In this document: positions 46,114 to 55,675 of the stretch, one piece after another
Layout: each line of letters opens with the position of its first letter
How positions within the stretch are numbered: position 1 is the stretch's first letter
Sequence record: PZ402300.1
Direction: 5' to 3' (one strand)
DNA length: 64,000 bases
Source: a phage
Notes under the pieces: generated by a model
The model's input: only the letters and a program-made list of their open reading frames with translations
What the model was told of the DNA's origin: nothing
The model's database searches: none
Translations under genes and position numbers: made by a program

Positions 46114-46523
46114 TAGTATTTACTACCTCTTCTATACCAGGGGTAGTGGTGAGTAGTACTTTTACTCTTGAACAAGTCACGAGTAATGGGATTCTTTCGT
46201 AATTGCTCCAGGTATAGGTACATGTGACCTTCTCCTGGATATGCCCAGAACTTATCTATGATTCGGTCTACCTTAGATTTCAGATGTGGTTCCGGGGGAA
46301 TGTATGGATGAAAAGATCTGCTAGTAGTCCATCCTTTTTGAACAAGAACCTGCATTGCTGCATAAACATCAGGATCAATTCCATTATCTTCTACTAGGTC
46401 ATGGATAGTTTTACCCAAAGTGAGTATTGCAGTTTGTTCTAGTTTACTTAAGTCCAGCCCATACAAGATAGACTTACCATTTCGTCTGTTTGTCATAAGA
46501 GTACCTGTAATTAAAAAGCCCAC
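46113..46523 (-). CDS. Hypothetical protein
   Basis: 136 aa ORF. Confidence 0.45.
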   Translation of the reverse strand: MGFLITGTLMTNRRNGKSILYGLDLSKLEQTAILTLGKTIHDLVEDNGIDPDVYAAMQVLVQKGWTTSRSFHPYIPPEPHLKSKVDRIIDKFWAYPGEGHMYLYLEQLRKNPITRDLFKSKSTTHHYPWYRRGSKY

Positions 46524-46612
46524 GGGTTAGGTGGGCTTGGGTTAGGAGATGGATAAGCAATGAGCTGGAAGTAACTTCCACAAGCACCACTATGTAATGA
46601 TGCTTAGGTTAG

Positions 46613-47141: not shown

Positions 47142-47648
47142 TTATTTACTGCTTCTTGCAGCTACTGGTTTGTTTTCCTGGTTCATGTACTTGCCATTGT
47201 AATTAGCAGGTTCCTGAACCAGATGAAATAATACTTGAGCTATCCCGGAACCAGCCGGGATATGTAATTTCTTACGACCATGATAGACCAGTTCAAGGGT
47301 AAGATACCCTTTCCATCCTGGTTCTATTACGGTATTGAACACTGATAGTGCACGTCTTGCCCATGTAGACTTATCGTGAACGATTGCTACACAGGAAGGA
47401 GACATGTTGAACTTCTCAATTGCTGAAGCCAATGTGAATTTACCGAAATGTCGTGATACTTGATTTCCATCAACGACCTTCACCATTGGAATCAAACCAA
47501 ATAAGCGATAGAAGGTAATATCTTGTTTGATACGAATATCATAACCAGCTTCACCCAATCCATAGCTTACACCGTGCTCTGATACCTTACGGTCTGGGAC
47601 GTCCAGCAACTGAGATGAACGATATAGAGAATTACCATTAACAACCAT
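47142..47648 (-). CDS. dcd: dCTP deaminase / dUTPase-fold protein
   Basis: 168 aa; motifs GYDIR and VIEPGWKGYLTLEL typical of dCTP deaminase family. Confidence 0.6.
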   Translation of the reverse strand: MVVNGNSLYRSSQLLDVPDRKVSEHGVSYGLGEAGYDIRIKQDITFYRLFGLIPMVKVVDGNQVSRHFGKFTLASAIEKFNMSPSCVAIVHDKSTWARRALSVFNTVIEPGWKGYLTLELVYHGRKKLHIPAGSGIAQVLFHLVQEPANYNGKYMNQENKPVAARSSK

Positions 47649-48835
47649 TATTTCATTCCTTTAGGGATATGAACTACCTCCCCAAAAGGTACGGTAGCAT
47701 TGGGATTATTCAGAACACACCAGATGATAGGAATATCAAATGGCAATTCTTCCATAGGGTGAACATACATATCGGAGAATATGATTGCAGCGGTTGGCTT
47801 ATTCTTAACAATCCATTCGCGTACTGGTTCAAGGTTTGTACCACCACGACCAGTAATCTTAATCTCTTCAAAAGTATCTTCTTCAGTGATGTCTATCTCT
47901 TCCTGGATAACATCGTCGAAGGTGATTAGGGTCATCTTCTTAGGATTGAACTGGCTTTTAACGTAGGCAACCTCTGAGTTAAAACGCAGAGAGTCAGCAC
48001 TACTGATGGAACCAGATACATCTTCAAAGTAGGCTAGGTGTCGCAAACGTCCTTCATCATCTTCCAAAGAAGGTAGATAGATATCAGTGTAACGACGGTT
48101 AGGTCTGGCCCACGTATAGTGAGTGTCATCAATGTCGGTAAAGAAGTTCATGAGTACTTCTTGCCATGGAACCACTGGTTTAAGGAATTGGGTAATAACC
48201 TCTTCCATACGACCAGCACCTTTACCAGGCATTGTTCCACCAGCCATTTTCTGGCTCTGCATTGCACGTACTACGTTGTTGACGACAGCACCCTGGGACT
48301 GCCCCGAAGTGGGGGATTTCATGTCGCCAGCAAGACCTGCTCCAGCACCCCCTGACGGCTTCTGCCTTTTCTGAGGGTTTTTCATCAGGTCATCATAGAT
48401 GTCTTCTTCGACCCACCCTTTATATTGAGGGTCTTTGCAAATACCTTCATCAATACCAGTGAACTTGTAACCATCCTCCTCTAACTGAAGGTTAATGAAG
48501 TGATCACATGCCTGGTTCCAGACTTCTGGGTCACGGCTTCCACGACGGATGTCATGTAGATATGCCACATGCCAGAGTTCGTGCATTAATACTGTTTCTC
48601 TTGCATCTGGACACATCCAGATAAAGAAGTCTGGGTTGAAATGTAGTTCTATCCCATCAGTACATGCAGTGGGACAATCCTCACGTTTCCATGAGAATTT
48701 AAGACTACATAGTAATGAACCAAAAAAGGCTGCGCTGCGTCCCAGAAATGCCTGAGCCTGAATACGGTCATACTCACGCATGAGTTGTTCATCACTAAGA
48801 GTGTGCTGAGGAAATTGGTTCATTGTTTTATCCAT
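47648..48835 (-). CDS. vWA-like / putative zinc metallopeptidase domain protein (HExxH)
   Basis: 395 aa; LMHELWHVAYLH HExxH motif; translationally coupled to upstream AAA ATPase. Confidence 0.5.
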   Translation of the reverse strand: MDKTMNQFPQHTLSDEQLMREYDRIQAQAFLGRSAAFFGSLLCSLKFSWKREDCPTACTDGIELHFNPDFFIWMCPDARETVLMHELWHVAYLHDIRRGSRDPEVWNQACDHFINLQLEEDGYKFTGIDEGICKDPQYKGWVEEDIYDDLMKNPQKRQKPSGGAGAGLAGDMKSPTSGQSQGAVVNNVVRAMQSQKMAGGTMPGKGAGRMEEVITQFLKPVVPWQEVLMNFFTDIDDTHYTWARPNRRYTDIYLPSLEDDEGRLRHLAYFEDVSGSISSADSLRFNSEVAYVKSQFNPKKMTLITFDDVIQEEIDITEEDTFEEIKITGRGGTNLEPVREWIVKNKPTAAIIFSDMYVHPMEELPFDIPIIWCVLNNPNATVPFGEVVHIPKGMK

Positions 48836-49880
48836 GAATGTAGCGAGAGATATTAGCAGCAGCCTTACGCCATTCAGAAGTAGCCTGAAGTTCTGGCAAT
48901 GCTCTGCCTACTGTACGGAAGTACAGAATCTTATGGGTGAACGTTTTAAAGCGTTCAATGTACTGAAGAACATCAGCGAAGTTCTCTTCAGTAGTCTTGT
49001 TAGCCAGATGGTTAACAGTAGCCCAGCATAGGTTGTTATCTTCCGGTAGTGCACAGCCTAATGGGTCTTTGACTACCTTTTCAATCGTAATGATACGATT
49101 GTACACCTGAGTAAACTGAACAAATTCTGTAGCCTTACCAGCAGTAACGTGTCCTGCGTAGTAAAGAGAATCTTCATCAGGCAGAGCACCTTCTGGCAGG
49201 TTCTTGAGGTCTTTGTTAACAAAGTCCCATGTACGAGGGCAACAGAACGTTTTATTCTTGTGGGCTGGGTCGAAGTCATGTAAATAACCTGGGTTAGCAT
49301 GTAAGAATGCAACCAGACGTTCATCCCATTGCTGAGGAATCATTACGTCTTCAACAAAGATGTCGAAGTTAAGTTCCATTTCAAAATGAACCACACGAGA
49401 CTGCATTGCAGTACCTAGTGGGTTAACAATGGCACGGTCAGTGGCTTTGTTACCAGCACAGACAATCATCACATTAGGATGAAGTTTTTTCTGACCAGTC
49501 ATGCGGTCCAGAATCAGTTTGTATGCAGCAGCTACCACTTCTTTCTTAGCTGAGTTGAATTCGTCAAGGAACAAAATCCACCCGTTATATCCTTCTGGTA
49601 CTTCATCTCCCTCAATGGGGAATAAGTCAGCGAATGGAATAAACTCTGCACGGTCACCATTACGGAATGGCAGACCAGAAAGGTCTTCTGGGGCAGAAGT
49701 AGACAGACGATGATCTATCAGCTTCATACCAAATTCTTCTGCAATAGAACGAATGATTGCGGATTTACCCATGCCTGGAGATGAAGTCAGGAACGGTACG
49801 TTACCCGCTTTCAGAGCACGGATAATAAAGTTGCGAGCTTGACGTGAATTACATACAGTCAAGGAGTCGATGTTTGCCAT
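48828..49880 (-). CDS. AAA+ ATPase (MoxR-like)
   Basis: Walker A SSPGMGKS; 350 aa. Confidence 0.65.
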   Translation of the reverse strand: MANIDSLTVCNSRQARNFIIRALKAGNVPFLTSSPGMGKSAIIRSIAEEFGMKLIDHRLSTSAPEDLSGLPFRNGDRAEFIPFADLFPIEGDEVPEGYNGWILFLDEFNSAKKEVVAAAYKLILDRMTGQKKLHPNVMIVCAGNKATDRAIVNPLGTAMQSRVVHFEMELNFDIFVEDVMIPQQWDERLVAFLHANPGYLHDFDPAHKNKTFCCPRTWDFVNKDLKNLPEGALPDEDSLYYAGHVTAGKATEFVQFTQVYNRIITIEKVVKDPLGCALPEDNNLCWATVNHLANKTTEENFADVLQYIERFKTFTHKILYFRTVGRALPELQATSEWRKAAANISRYIHG

Positions 49881-49914: not shown

Positions 49915-50241
49915 TTAAGATTTAATACATGGATATGCTGTATCAATTGCTAACAGAACCATGTCTGATGGTACTTTTACTGCATTAACCTTTCGGTCAT
50001 ACAGAATAATAGTGGCTACTTTGTCAAAGACATTTCCTAACTTTAAACTATCTGGTACGCAGTTCTTACCTGCCTCTACGCCCATAGTAACCATGCCCAT
50101 GAAGTAACCCTGGTTCACAAAGTTTGCATTATTGGCTTTGTAGTCAGCAGCAGCGTCTAACAGAGTTTCACGGCTAGATGCTTGAGCATTGAATGACAGA
50201 ACTGATAAAGCTACTACAGCAACAGCAATTAAAGTTTTCAT
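49915..50241 (-). CDS. Small secreted/periplasmic protein with signal peptide
   Basis: MKTLIAVAVVALSVLSFNAQA signal peptide with AQA-SS cleavage site; two Cys. Confidence 0.5.
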   Translation of the reverse strand: MKTLIAVAVVALSVLSFNAQASSRETLLDAAADYKANNANFVNQGYFMGMVTMGVEAGKNCVPDSLKLGNVFDKVATIILYDRKVNAVKVPSDMVLLAIDTAYPCIKS

Positions 50242-51453: not shown

Positions 51454-51483
51454 CAAAAAAAGACCTCCCTTCAATAGGGAGGT
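51454..51483 (-). terminator. Rho-independent terminator
   Basis: Minus strand GACCUCCC-UAUUGAA-GGGAGGUC followed by U7. Confidence 0.6.
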
Positions 51484-51534
51484 CAAACTTGAGGGTTTCA
51501 CTTCAGGGTTTATAACCCCAAACAAAGAATACCC

Positions 51535-52368
51535 TTATTCTGCAACAGTAACAGGGATGGTTACATCGACAGTACCGTTGGTAACTACTACAGAAGTAGC
51601 ATCACCAGCAGCTACTGGTTTAACTGTCAGTACGTTACCGGCAATGGTAGCCGTAGCACGTCCAGACTCTGGAGCAGTCTTGATAGACAAAGCACCAGAA
51701 GAAGAACCAACAGGCATAGCAACAATTGTTACGGTCTTACCATCAGTAGTATCGGCAGCAACAGACAGAGCCAGTGAAGCAGGAGTAGCTACCAGAGAGC
51801 TTGCTTCGTAGTAGCCTACAGCCAGCAAAGACTCATCTTCTACCGTGGTTCCATTAGCATCAGTAACAATCACCTTATAAGTACCGGCAGAGGCAGCTGT
51901 TACGTCTTTAAGAGTCAATGTTGCAGCAGCAGCGGATGGGTTAGTACTGGAGCTAATATCAGCGAATGCTGCACCAGCAGTATCAGCTTTGAACTGCCAT
52001 TTATAAGTAAATGGTGCTTTACCACCTGCTACATCAACATGCCAGTTAATATCTTCACCTTCGATAGCAGAGACTACACGAGGCAGTTTGGTAGCAATAG
52101 TCAGTCGTGGAGTAGCTTTCATATCAATAGAGATAGACTGCATATCTACGATATTGTTAGGCCAGAAGCCTTCTTCAGATGGGTCTTTAGCAGAGCGTTT
52201 ATACAGCAGATCACGAACACCATGGAAGATAACTAAGCTATCTGGGTAAGTGGCATCTGGGTGTATAAAAGTACCTACTTCTACGGAACCACCCGGGATA
52301 GAACCACTGGCATCCAGTACAGTTGCGACATTAGTGGTTTTGTTAAAACCTACTTTCAAAGTTGGCAT
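51535..52368 (-). CDS. Ig-like (bacterial Ig-like fold) domain protein forming its own transcription unit
   Basis: Track ORF 51535..52431; start reset to ATG 52368 (GAGGAAA RBS; the track start would overlap a terminator hairpin); β-rich repeats such as KAPFTYKWQFK and GTYKVIVTDANGTTV. Confidence 0.5.
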   Translation of the reverse strand: MPTLKVGFNKTTNVATVLDASGSIPGGSVEVGTFIHPDATYPDSLVIFHGVRDLLYKRSAKDPSEEGFWPNNIVDMQSISIDMKATPRLTIATKLPRVVSAIEGEDINWHVDVAGGKAPFTYKWQFKADTAGAAFADISSSTNPSAAAATLTLKDVTAASAGTYKVIVTDANGTTVEDESLLAVGYYEASSLVATPASLALSVAADTTDGKTVTIVAMPVGSSSGALSIKTAPESGRATATIAGNVLTVKPVAAGDATSVVVTNGTVDVTIPVTVAE

Positions 52369-52413
52369 ATCAATTTCCTCATAAGTAAATGGCAGAGTTA
52401 GTATACATGACAG

Positions 52414-52444
52414 ATAAAAAAATAAACCCACCTAGTGGTGGGTT
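52414..52444 (-). terminator. Rho-independent terminator
   Basis: Minus strand AACCCACC-ACUA-GGUGGGUU followed by U-rich run. Confidence 0.55.
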
Positions 52445-52682: not shown

Positions 52683-52796
52683 TTAACTTAATGCATAATC
52701 TGTTTCAAGGATGTCCTGCCAGAGGCTGTCATCCAGCTTACCAGCAGAGAACTCTTGTCCCAGTACCTGAGTCAGGATGAATCCCAGTAAGTCACT
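52683..52796 (-). CDS. RNAP II large subunit, exon 3 (C-terminal segment ending …WQDILETDYALS); 5' boundary uncertain (alternative exon start 52898)
   Basis: C-terminus aligns with T7 RNAP C-terminal …LRDILESDFAFA; lies in track ORF 52683..52979 whose N-terminal part overlaps the HNH ORF and is presumed intronic. Confidence 0.45.
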   Translation of the reverse strand, partial: SDLLGFILTQVLGQEFSAGKLDDSLWQDILETDYALS

Positions 52797-53839
52797 CTTA
52801 GCAATGTCAGACAGAATCTGATTGTACTGACGACGCAGGTCATTACCGTAGTTAGGATGGCATCTAAAACCATTAGTTAAACGAGTCGTTAGCTCGCCCT
52901 TACCTTCCATGATTAACATGGAAGCCATACGTAGCATCTGCTTCTTTACGAGCAAGCATTGCCTCCTCAAGTGTGTCATACGTACCCAGACCGATCTGTT
53001 TACGATTGACTGTGATGTGTGCCTGGAATCTACCAGAAGGTAATATTCTTACACCATTCACTTTGCTTGATGTATTACGTGATAAACCCATATTCATCTG
53101 GTTCTGTCTACTGGTTACATTTCTCAGATTAGACCAACGGTTGTCGTTTCTAATGTGATTGATGTGATCCACCTGGTTAGGTGTTTCCCCTGTTTCCATT
53201 ATCCAGATTATTCGATGCAGTAAGTACTCTTTACGACCCAGACTAACAGATAAATAGCCTTCTTTGTGAGGATACCCCACAATTGTTCCGGCTAATCCAC
53301 TAGCAGAGTCGTAACGATGAGTTACTAGCCCACTTTCTCTGTCATACCGTAAAACCTTCTTCAAAGATTCTTGGGTAATAGTATCCAAGTCTTTTATCAG
53401 GTTCTTACAGGTAGGACATAGGTGGCCTATTGGACTCTTTTTAGCATCATAGAAGTTGCAAACAAACTCACTAGAGCATTGCTTACAACTACAGATAGCT
53501 GTGTACTTACCAGTTTTACGTAATATTTGGGAGTTATCTAACATATGGATTCCTTAGTAATTTTGCATACAATTTCAGATTGTATCCTAACCAAGGAAGT
53601 AAGTCTCCAGTTTTCACTGGAGTATCGGACTATATCATCACCCACTAATCAGTGGGGCAAGGCGCTTGGGTGGTCACTTGACTCACCTACTCTACTCACA
53701 TACGAAATGTTTTCGATAGTCTCTGAACCTTCCCTCATGGAGGGCTTGGCTGCTGATTGGCATATCCATAGGACTTAGCTTTCCAGCAATTCACCTTGTT
53801 TTCGACACGGATTACTCCGTGAAGGATCATTTATGTTTA
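52797..53839 (-). mobile_element. Group I intron 2 (approximate boundaries) carrying an HNH-AP2 homing endonuclease gene
   Basis: Minus-strand core elements AAUUGCUGGAAAGC (P-like), AAUCAGCAGCC (Q-like), GGUUCAGAGACUAUCG (R-like, 53714-53729) and GAUGAUAUAGUCCGAUAC (S-like, 53622-53639); begins with UAA directly after the exon-2 …VHD codon; P1 not identified, 3' end could be 52899 instead. Confidence 0.55.
52900..53544 (-). CDS. HNH homing endonuclease with C-terminal AP2-type DNA-binding domain (intron 2-encoded)
   Basis: 214 aa; HNH motif VDHINHIRNDNRWSNLRNV; AP2-like region VNGVRILPSGRFQAHITVNRKQIGLGTYDTLEEA. Confidence 0.7.
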   Translation of the reverse strand: MLDNSQILRKTGKYTAICSCKQCSSEFVCNFYDAKKSPIGHLCPTCKNLIKDLDTITQESLKKVLRYDRESGLVTHRYDSASGLAGTIVGYPHKEGYLSVSLGRKEYLLHRIIWIMETGETPNQVDHINHIRNDNRWSNLRNVTSRQNQMNMGLSRNTSSKVNGVRILPSGRFQAHITVNRKQIGLGTYDTLEEAMLARKEADATYGFHVNHGR

Positions 53840-54446
53840 ATCATGTACAGTCATTACAGGGAATGGCTTCTTAGGTAAAGTATTGAGCATAGTCAGGATT
53901 ACATCTGTATCAACCAATGCAATGGTTTCTGAGTCCAGATAATCAAAGATACGGGTAGACAGAAAGCCTGATTTCTCATAGCTAGCCCACAGTGTATTAA
54001 CCGTTTCATGACTAGCACCAGGGACAACTATGTATTCACCAGTTCCTTCACAGAGGGACTTAATATAGTTCACCTGGTTCACGTTGAAGTTACAACGACG
54101 CAGCATCTCACGTACCACCATCCCATCAATAGAGTGAGTGATGTTAGCAGAGAGCATACGGGTCTTCTCTTCAGTACCCTGAACCATACGAGTGATGTCG
54201 AATGGCTTACCTAAGAAGTTAACAGTCTGTACTTCAGGAACCATGACCTTAATGACAGCATGGAAGTTGTCAGGAAGTACCCATACGTAACGGTTAGCAT
54301 CAGGATTACCACATTGCAGTAAGAACTTGTTAAGTGCCCAAGGACCACTAGCAACAGTTTCCATTACATTCTCAAAAGTCTTGAGACGAATACCTTCACC
54401 GAATACTTCTTTAGGCTTGGCTTCTGAGCCGTAGAATGCAGTCATA
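53840..54446 (-). CDS. RNAP II large subunit, exon 2 (motif B second half through motif C region)
   Basis: Track ORF 53837..54445 (MTAFYGSEAK…VMTVHD); TAFYGS aligns to T7 RNAP TLAYGS (Y639); TLWASYEKSG aligns to T7 TVVWAHEKYG. Confidence 0.7.
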
Positions 54447-55253
54447 CATTATGTTCAAGGGAGGTCGTTAGTCTCCCCCAGCAGCTTTACCTGCATCTCA
54501 CTGTTACCAGTGAGTTCGGACTATATCATCTAGACTGATAGTCTAGCCGGGCGCTTCGACCCACTTGGGCCTACTCTACTAAGTTCAGCTTTCGCTGCTT
54601 TTCGATAGTCTCTGCACCTTTTGGTTATTCAAAACAGCATCACACATATCAATAAAGTCATTGGTTGAGAGGTCACCCTTTGCTCGGTTTACACACCAAG
54701 CTAACCATTGAACATTACCAATACTGTATCCTTTACTTGGTTCTATCTGATCTAGTGATAGACACAAAGGATGCCCCGATTCAATTACTAAGGTTGCTCC
54801 AGTTAAAGCACATTTAAATTCCTGTGATTTAAGGATTTCAAATAAATACTCTACTGTACAATCTGGCATAGGCTTACCAAACTTTTTACACCGACTTCTT
54901 GCATCCTTTAGTCTATGGGAGACTGCGGAATACCATTTACGGTGTTCTTTTGGTATTGCTTTACGAACTCCAGTTCCATTGTAACCTGGGTTCTTTTTAC
55001 GCCATTCACGAGCTACAGCAGCCTTACAGGGTCTGCAACGATTCTCGTAATTAGTTTTGAATCCTGTGAGTGATTTTTTAGTCTCTGGGAATACTTCGAT
55101 AGGAAGTAATTTTTTACATCGACTACATGTTTTGAATTCTGACATAGAATGCTCCTTATTGAACTTTCTACGCTACCAACTTGGCTCATGATTGTCCACT
55201 AGGGATGTTCCATGAGTTCACCCGGTTTTAAGGCCGCCATGACTTAAAGGTTA
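54447..55253 (-). mobile_element. Group I intron 1 (807 nt) carrying an HNH/His-Me-finger-like endonuclease ORF
   Basis: 5' exon ends GGCCGU paired with intron GCGGCC (P1, U-G at splice site); intron AGUCAUG pairs with exon-2 start UAUGACU (P10); terminal G at 54447; R-like GGUGCAGAGACUAUCG (54602-54617) and S-like GAUGAUAUAGUCCGAAC (54514-54530). Confidence 0.75.
54585..55145 (-). CDS. Intron 1-encoded putative homing endonuclease (zinc-ribbon N-terminus, degenerate HNH/His-Me finger core)
   Basis: 186 aa; CSRCKK…CRPCK Cys pairs; LSLDQIEPSKGYSIGNVQWLAWCVNRAKGD resembles an HNH-type nuclease core. Confidence 0.5.
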   Translation of the reverse strand: MSEFKTCSRCKKLLPIEVFPETKKSLTGFKTNYENRCRPCKAAVAREWRKKNPGYNGTGVRKAIPKEHRKWYSAVSHRLKDARSRCKKFGKPMPDCTVEYLFEILKSQEFKCALTGATLVIESGHPLCLSLDQIEPSKGYSIGNVQWLAWCVNRAKGDLSTNDFIDMCDAVLNNQKVQRLSKSSES

Positions 55254-55675
55254 ACGGCCTGCTTAGTGTCACTACGCTTAATACGTGATGCTTCACCAAG
55301 GATGTCCAGCATCTTGTGATAGATAACTGTATAGGCATCACGGCGTAATGGCTTACCATTCTCATCCATGTAGTTAACTACGTTACACAGTTCAGCAGCA
55401 GAGCGGTCACCAGTCAGACAGGCCAGTAACTGTAAGCCTGATGATGTAGCATCCAGAGCTACAGCATAACCAATAGGCTTACCTGCTTTCATATCTTTCC
55501 ATGCATTTACACCTGCAAAGAACAGAGCAGAATCCTCTGCTTCATCTACCAGATTAAGCAGGTTAGCTTCATTCTCATCGAACCAGGCAATACGTTCATC
55601 CCATGTCTTTTTATCTAAGCCATAGTTATTAGCGATATCTACTTTCAGGTATTCACGAGCGGTTAACAGTTGCAT
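55254..55675 (-). CDS. RNAP II large subunit, exon 1 (motif A through first half of motif B)
   Basis: Track ORF 55244..55675; ALDATSSGLQLLACLTGDRSAA aligns to T7 RNAP [22 protein letters not shown] (D537); ends RSDTKQAV. Confidence 0.7.

Follow-up and report, generated by a model that had tools for sequence, protein, structure and literature searches.

The window, a 64,000-nucleotide (nt) stretch of DNA from sequence record PZ402300.1, is from a Gamaleyavirus (G7C/N4-like, Schitoviridae) coliphage, and it contains two minus-strand open reading frames (ORFs) that, judged by sequence orthology and conserved position, are the orthologues of gp24 and gp25 of phage N4. One is predicted to encode an AAA+ ATPase of the MoxR class, and the other a protein that joins a zincin-like domain to a von Willebrand factor A (VWA)-like domain. 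By analogy with the NorQD system, we modestly favor the view that the two proteins would act as a two-component, ATP-driven MoxR/VWA remodeler with a protease built in. An earlier note on this DNA had described the pair as a MoxR-type ATPase translationally coupled to a vWA-like protein whose HExxH motif suggested peptidase activity. Domain and fold searches, the failure of which the note had named as grounds for giving up its assignments, back all three of them with differing strength, and both ORFs lie where the note had placed them.

The ATPase gene, gp24, occupies positions 48828..49880 (350 amino acids, aa), and its assignment draws on the ORF itself, on Pfam, PHROG, AlphaFold2 and Foldseek, and on orthology with N4 gp24. 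The second gene, gp25, spans 47648..48835 (395 aa) when it is read from its first ATG and 47648..48823 (391 aa) when it is read from the methionine at codon 5 (M5); its product is identified as a zincin-VWA protein by the ORF, Pfam, the AlphaFold2 model and orthology with N4 gp25. All gp24 and gp25 features given below are on the minus strand. The DNA of this region is 91-93% identical to that of G7C-like phages, and the two proteins are up to 99% identical to their counterparts in ECBP1 and St11Ph5. G7C records label the proteins 'ATPase' and 'VWA-like domain-containing protein' and annotate both as homologues of N4 gp24 and gp25, in identical order. Among the N4-like phages, gp24 ('Unknown') and gp25 ('vWFA domain') belong to a set of 14 core genes, and in N4 both are transcribed as middle genes (PMC4193335, PMC2784036). 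These descriptions agree with the earlier note's remark that the role of such pairs in phages is poorly defined (PMC4193335): two of just 14 genes common to N4-like phages have no assigned role. The pair draws further interest from its very wide range across mobile elements, which takes in podoviruses, myoviruses, jumbo phages, plasmids and chromosomal regions.

The gp24 protein matches the Pfam family AAA (E = 1.3e-6) and PHROG 1297, 'ATPase' (E = 5e-133), while AAA_5 scores 20.0 bits, just below its 22-bit cut-off. Its AlphaFold2 model has a predicted local distance difference test score (pLDDT) of 86.9, and the best Foldseek matches to this model in the PDB are NorQ (9qhg/9qh4) and CbbQ (6l1q/5c3c), followed by midasin and dynein. 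The NorQ and CbbQ matches have E values of ~2e-7 to 2e-6 and target-normalized template modeling (TM) scores of 0.57-0.65, and the NorQ structures include complexes with the NorD VWA domain. PDB sequence searches with gp24, run with the single sequence and with a profile, returned weak midasin matches and nothing else. Across the 56 phage-type sequences aligned to score conservation, weak matches (E up to 1) to AAA_5, AAA_3 and bpMoxR were found in 51, 16 and 12 sequences, respectively.

The motifs expected of an AAA+ ATPase are strongly conserved in that alignment and in a further 61 bacterial homologues. The Walker A motif, or P-loop, SSPGMGKS, which the earlier note had pointed out, lies at residues 33-40 (49761..49784), and none of the 56 aligned sequences departs from its P35, G38, K39 and S40; the bacterial homologues have lysine at position 39 in 58 cases, arginine in one and a gap in two. 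The Walker B motif ILFLDE (residues 102-107; 49560..49577), recognized by conservation, contains D106 and E107, which are likewise invariant (56/56), and the bacterial proteins have either DE (50) or DD (11) at this position. A conserved stretch then runs from sensor-1 N144 (in AGN) to the predicted arginine finger R162 (in QSR; 49395..49451), with both residues present in every phage-type (56/56) and bacterial (61/61) sequence.

An insert in gp24 (residues 59-100; 49581..49706) separates strand 2 from the strand of Walker B and stands out by its conservation and low pLDDT. MoxR-class ATPases carry their helix-2 insert here, a likeness of position for an insert of ~40 residues in a low-confidence part of the model. 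Although its pLDDT is ~50, so that the hairpin shape is not fixed by the model, the segment is among the most conserved parts of gp24: P64, D66, G69, P71, A78, F80, F83, P88, P95, G100 and W101 are invariant in the phage-type alignment, and P64, D66, G69 and P71 are kept in 59 of the 61 bacterial homologues and gapped in the other two. In NorQ, the helix-2 insert grips the VWA 'finger' of its partner (PMC13036017). We conclude that, by predicted fold and sequence motifs, gp24 conforms to the MoxR class proposed in the earlier note, though it fails every curated MoxR sequence model.

For gp25, conservation was scored in an alignment of 61 phage-type sequences and in 77 bacterial homologues that are 26-33% identical to it. 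Two Pfam families span the protein fully, DUF2201_N, 'putative metallopeptidase' (E = 2.1e-56), and DUF2201, 'VWA-like' (E = 2.9e-34), and the AlphaFold2 model has a pLDDT of 77.5. The N-terminal zincin-like domain (residues ~10-155; 48371..48808), delimited by the model and by DUF2201_N, has pLDDT values mostly of 83-94 and consists of three short strands followed by the helix with the HExxH motif and then by the helix with D111, an order that in the model is compatible with a zincin core. The motif itself, HELWH (residues 85-89; 48569..48583), was already recognized in the earlier note and falls within helix 76-91. All 61 aligned sequences have its H85, E86 and H89; among the bacterial homologues the two histidines are kept in 77 of 77 and E86 in 68. 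A second conserved segment leads from H94 to the motif W-N-x-A-C-D (residues 94-111; 48503..48556) and provides a candidate third zinc ligand in H94 or D111. D111 is invariant and H94 at least 90% conserved in the phage-type alignment, and both are present in 77 of 77 bacterial sequences. Two metagenomic gp25 homologues, P0253 (701 aa) and P0244 (519 aa), carry inteins, recognized by Pfam Intein_splicing and a sub-threshold Vint match to a Hint domain, exactly between A109 and C110. Insertion of this kind is typical of functionally central sites, which argues that the WNxACD motif is one of them.

By composition alone, ~0.01 HExxH and ~0.01 Walker A matches would be expected per protein of this size, and of the 103 ORFs in the window that reach 100 aa, just one other contains an HExxH. 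The conservation of the motifs in the alignments is stronger evidence than these odds. Additionally, four of the 61 gp25 homologues have weak matches to Peptidase_M91. We regard the N-terminal domain as a putative peptidase, on the basis of the HExxH motif, its conservation and the Pfam family, and consider this the weakest of the three assignments. The peptidase activity suggested in the earlier note thus finds backing in DUF2201_N and in the conserved HExxH, H94 and D111, but not among the fold matches, which we take up below.

The N-terminal domain is followed in the model by a Gly-rich, largely disordered linker (residues ~156-262; 48050..48370), in which pLDDT falls below 50 at residues 161-168, 217-226 and 234-262. 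The linker ends in a W-x-R-P-N-R-R-Y segment whose W242 and R248 are invariant and whose R244, P245, N246 and R247 are at least 90% conserved in the 61-sequence alignment. The remainder of the protein is a compact VWA-like domain (residues ~263-395; 47651..48049), assigned by Pfam DUF2201 and Foldseek, which is shortened to ~130 aa and has pLDDT values of 63-92. Its PDB matches are CLCA1, ArnB VWA2, ITIH1, BatB and integrin I (E = 5e-4 to 1e-2), the best being the CLCA1 VWA domain with E = 5e-4 and a target-normalized TM score of ~0.5, and 12 of the 61 gp25 homologues match VWA_CoxE. The domain also contains a complete MIDAS (an adhesion site dependent on metal ions), delineated by conservation and missed in the earlier note, which comprises D272, S274 and S276 in the motif DVSGS (48008..48022), T333 (47837..47839) and D355 (47771..47773). 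All five residues are invariant in the phage-type alignment (61/61), and among the bacterial homologues D272, S274 and S276 are kept in 77/77, T333 in 76/77 and D355 in 74/77. The family match, the VWA structures and this intact site bear out the description of gp25 as vWA-like.

The junction between the two genes (48821..48835) reads CAT GGA TAA AAC A ATG AAC, with the gp24 stop codon TAA at 48830..48828, the first possible gp25 ATG at 48835..48833 and the M5 ATG at 48823..48821. An overlap of 8 nt between the genes (ATGGATAA) holds only if the first ATG is the start. G7C, which has CAC for CAT, lacks this codon, and its gp25 starts at the position that corresponds to M5. Homologues of gp25 have 390-391 aa and an N-terminus that reads MN; the commonest close one, P0001, at 391 aa, is 97% identical and stands for 799 member sequences. 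Because of these observations, the sequence comparison makes M5 the most likely true start of gp25, with a 4-nt spacer after the gp24 stop. The translational coupling claimed in the earlier note is plausible: a 4-nt gap would be tight enough for coupled translation of gp24 and gp25, but the overlap depends on an ATG that G7C does without.

In G7C, the UE-S5/UE-M phages, U1G and others, an HNH homing-endonuclease gene of 477 nt (G7C gp24.1; locus L001, 7715..8195) is inserted exactly at this junction. The inserted gene begins 4 nt past the stop codon of gp24, at the position of the gp25 ATG in the window, and its own stop codon overlaps the gp25 start (TAATG). No HNH gene is present at the gp24/gp25 junction of the window.

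Conserved synteny rules out a chance adjacency of the two genes. Among the best 80 loci with a gp25 relative, sampled from bacterial and archaeal genome assemblies, 66 have a gp24 homologue upstream of it on the same strand; where 2.5 kb or more of upstream sequence is available, just five loci lack one. The two genes are immediate neighbors in 21 of these 66 pairs and spaced in 45, and at least 28 of the spaced loci have a ~300-aa DUF3150-like ORF between the ATPase and zincin-VWA genes; no DUF3150-like ORF was found among the ORFs of the window. The neighbors of the bacterial modules, which include PRTRC ThiF and E proteins, Sipho_Gp157, RNase H, an XF1762-family protein, VirB4 and VirB11, point to a mobile-element setting. 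In a conjugative Burkholderia pseudomallei plasmid, for example, the ATPase, DUF3150 and VWA genes are directly upstream of a type IV secretion system operon.

The distribution among phages and plasmids gives the same picture of pairing. Phage records with gp25 relatives number 743 and those with gp24 relatives 806, with taxon counts that nearly agree, and jumbo phages, Campylobacter phages and rV5-like myoviruses are among the carriers. Jumbo phage RaK2 has its gp24-like and gp25-like genes side by side, and genes of the RaK2 type match the profiles made here with E values of 5e-42 (gp24-like) and 2e-40 (gp25-like). The gp25-family profile further matches 21,562 clusters at 50% identity in a set of 1.84 billion representatives, as well as 107 plasmid records. 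NCBIfam contains no match for gp24 or gp25, and PADLOC returned insignificant P-loop matches alone (DolB, IetA), so the pair falls in no catalogued defense system. The bacterial homologues without E86 constitute a clade in Desulfobacterota and related chromosomal loci (L038, L047, L055, L057, L061, L066, L067, L070 and L071), in which the ATPase gene abuts the gp25 homologue with no DUF3150-like gene between them and, at six of the nine loci, a distinct 153-aa ORF comes next.

From the domain identities, the conserved motifs and the pairing of the genes on mobile elements, we infer a complex with ATPase and peptidase activities that acts on a client protein. The template is the NorQ/NorD type of machine, in which a hexameric MoxR ring binds one VWA partner by a finger in the pore and a contact with the helix-2 insert; the MIDAS holds an acidic residue of the client, and ATP hydrolysis rotates the VWA domain, stretches the linker and remodels the client (PMC9976466, PMC13036017). 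By analogy, gp24 would assemble as a hexameric AAA+ ring, on which the C-terminal VWA domain of gp25 would dock, probably via the conserved helix-2-insert region. The MIDAS metal would then capture an acidic residue of the client, and ATP hydrolysis would twist and stretch gp25 through its long flexible linker. Because gp25 is laid out like NorD but has a zincin-like N-terminal domain, we propose that the client would be presented to the protease domain of gp25 itself, and that this HExxH domain would cleave either the held client or gp25.

Both proteins would be made in the middle phase of infection, along with nucleotide-metabolism and replication genes. Given this timing, and since conjugative plasmids and other mobile elements carry the module too, a host protein, or a component common to invading DNA elements, is a more likely client than a virion protein. 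A bolder version, which we offer as a speculation with a rather low chance of being right, would make the pair an ATP-powered 'entry weapon' of mobile elements in general: the MIDAS would seize one particular host protein, for instance a defense or nucleoid-associated factor, which would then be unfolded and cut. If true, it would define a new mechanistic class of anti-host or anti-defense machine, common to virulent phages of the N4-like, rV5-like and jumbo kinds, to conjugative plasmids and to other mobile elements, and it would explain the core status of the pair in the Schitoviridae. In any case, to find the client would close a gap in what is known of N4 and show what a MoxR-VWA motor does with a protease in its adaptor.

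Several observations weigh against a remodeler with a built-in protease. Apart from the narrow shortfall with AAA_5, gp24 reaches just 13.8 of the 27 bits needed for bpMoxR and has no match to AAA_3, so that no curated MoxR-type Pfam cut-off is reached. Among the 50 Foldseek PDB matches listed for full-length gp25 there is no solved zincin, and all of them fall on the VWA half; PDB sequence and profile searches with gp25 returned nothing significant, the sole sub-threshold alignment being to an integrin I domain over the MIDAS. In the nine Desulfobacterota homologues T, V, L or I stands in place of E86, with all His/Asp ligands and the MIDAS kept, and this loss of the catalytic glutamate means that peptide hydrolysis is not universal in the gp25 family. 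The HNH gene splits the pair in G7C, and in rV5-like phages the two genes are ~4 kb apart on opposite strands; strict translational coupling is therefore not required. Finally, in the literature on the family (DUF2201, DUF3150, Schitoviridae MoxR) we found no experiment on any member. The 'gp25' of the CRISPRi-ART paper belongs to a different phage, PTXU04, and is not N4 gp25.

These points have to be set beside what other explanations offer. The pair could serve virion assembly, with the MoxR-vWA proteins acting as a chaperone that builds the capsid or tail and the zincin as a maturation protease that processes structural proteins. Such a role was proposed for the identical architecture in group 2.2 jumbo phages, with a precedent in Acidianus two-tailed virus (ATV) (PMC7824862), and the VWFA protein ORF892 of ATV is among the BFVD structural matches, at rank 45. 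A Hoc-like head-decoration gene, gp17 (51535..52431), is close upstream in the window, and roseophage RPP1 encodes some virion proteins near its gp24 and gp25 homologues (PMC4193335). Yet the same module, with its motifs conserved, is present in conjugative plasmids and mobile-element-like chromosomal regions, which make no virions. In N4, moreover, gp24 and gp25 are middle and not late transcripts, and their homologues are absent from the virion proteins listed for RPP1 and RLP1 (PMC4193335). The window pair itself shares a terminator-bounded stretch with dCTP deaminase and not with structural genes, and overall we judge a function in virion assembly unlikely.

We give still less credence to a chaperone for metal insertion or enzyme activation, of the kind represented by NorQD (iron into nitric oxide reductase), CbbQO (Rubisco activation) and CobST. 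Here the His/Asp site of the N-terminal domain would hold or deliver a metal without cutting peptides, and a phage or host metalloenzyme would be matured. The nearest solved relatives of gp24, NorQ and CbbQ, are of this type, the VWA_CoxE matches of gp25 homologues are consistent with it, and the nine bacterial proteins that lose the general-base glutamate while keeping H85, H89, H94, D111 and the MIDAS are what such a site might look like. The genes also stand among nucleotide-metabolism genes (dCTP deaminase, ThyX), but neither enzyme is known to need a metal-insertion chaperone. E86, moreover, is invariant in 61/61 phage-type and kept in 68/77 bacterial sequences, and no candidate metalloenzyme is conserved beside the module across the phages, plasmids and mobile-element regions examined. 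A quite different identity, that of an HNH endonuclease, is given to gp25 by PHROG 1314 and by the annotations under the gp25 match in many phage records, in GenBank and RefSeq alike. It is almost certainly wrong: gp25 and its 60 aligned homologues have no match to an HNH Pfam family at E up to 1, and DUF2201_N and DUF2201 cover gp25 fully. We reject the label at the sequence level as what looks like a propagated mislabel, which probably originated from the intein-carrying members or from the HNH gene beside gp25 in G7C-type genomes.

As in G7C, the pair is positioned upstream of the dCTP deaminase and ThyX genes, and the gp25 stop codon and the dCTP deaminase start codon overlap (TAATG at 47648). 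No terminator-like site was found between gp24 and gp25 on the minus strand of the window. Because the closest minus-strand sites of this kind around the pair are at 51462-51484 and 46516-46538, gp24 and gp25 probably share a transcript with the small upstream ORFs and the dCTP deaminase gene. Immediately upstream of gp24 is a 108-aa ORF (49915..50241, minus strand) with a signal-peptide-like N-terminus; its Pfam match to the Rap1a immunity proteins is weak and below threshold (E = 0.004), and it bears the label 'Tai4' in several related phage records. Elsewhere in the window, two tRNA genes (Rfam RF00005; 25093..25166 and 25175..25247, minus strand) are near a change in the sign of the GC skew at ~24 kb, which presumably marks a strand switch of gene blocks.

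The window homologue of gp16, the large subunit of N4 RNAPII, is interrupted more than once. At 53605..53848 on the minus strand, the codon for ...TVHD of the gene is followed by a group I intron (92.8 bits to Rfam RF00028, E = 5.5e-24). Downstream of it is a 214-aa ORF (52900..53544, minus strand) whose sequence suggests a putative HNH-type homing endonuclease, and the last gp16 exon resumes at ~52871..52686. The gene is split again among the minus-strand ORFs at 55244..55675, 54585..55145 and 53837..54445: residues 1-141 and 142-343 of G7C gp16 correspond to separate ORFs, the first with its own stop codon and the second with its own ATG, and the 186-aa ORF between the gp16 pieces may be a free-standing homing endonuclease. 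Given this division into separate ORFs, the middle RNA polymerase subunit may be made in pieces.

Among known systems, the gp24 and gp25 genes of N4 are direct orthologues of the window pair and differ from it in nothing essential, whereas G7C and several relatives have the gp24.1 HNH gene between the two. A similar order of domains is found outside phages. CLCA proteins consist of a zincin followed by a VWA domain with a MIDAS, and in CLCA1, whose VWA domain is the best PDB match of gp25, the zincin is a self-cleaving metalloprotease. Unlike gp25, CLCA1 is a secreted eukaryotic protein without an AAA+ partner, and the resemblance may be convergent.

The likeness to NorQ/NorD and CbbQ/CbbO, on which our proposed mechanism draws, extends from the best structural matches of gp24 to the conserved helix-2-insert region and the adjacency of the genes, and gp25, like NorD, runs from an N-terminal domain through a flexible linker to a VWA domain with a MIDAS at the C-terminal end (PMC9976466, PMC13036017). 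The differences are nonetheless considerable. Sequence identity between gp24 and NorQ or CbbQ is 15-19%, and the C-terminal helical region of gp24, at ~180 aa, is longer than the NorQ lid. The VWA domain of gp25 is compact (~130 aa), and its zincin-like HExxH domain is one that NorD and CbbO are without. Additionally, the clients of NorQD and CbbQO, nitric oxide reductase and Rubisco, are irrelevant to a coliphage.

Viral MoxR-vWA pairs have been described before. ATV has one in p618 (MoxR) and p892 (VWA), cited as a chaperone needed for tail development; this archaeal virus pair lacks a peptidase domain (PMC7824862), and the likeness of ORF892 to gp25 is distant and structural. Iyer et al. 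(2021) described, for jumbo phages of group 2.2, a MoxR ATPase together with a vWA protein that has an N-terminal metallopeptidase domain (PMC7824862), and both the two-gene architecture and the domain order match those of gp24 and gp25. The window pair is thus an already known module, with Pfam and PHROG families and an architecture in print, and since the jumbo-phage work precedes it, the pair is less novel than the earlier note implied. That work called the jumbo-phage pair previously unrecognized and proposed a virion-assembly role for it (PMC7824862), whereas gp24 and gp25 are core middle genes of ~72-kb podoviruses. Plasmids and other mobile elements, for their part, carry three-gene modules of ATPase, DUF3150-like and VWA genes, while the genes of the window pair abut without a DUF3150-like gene. 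This distribution across plasmids and mobile elements argues for a role broader than virion assembly.

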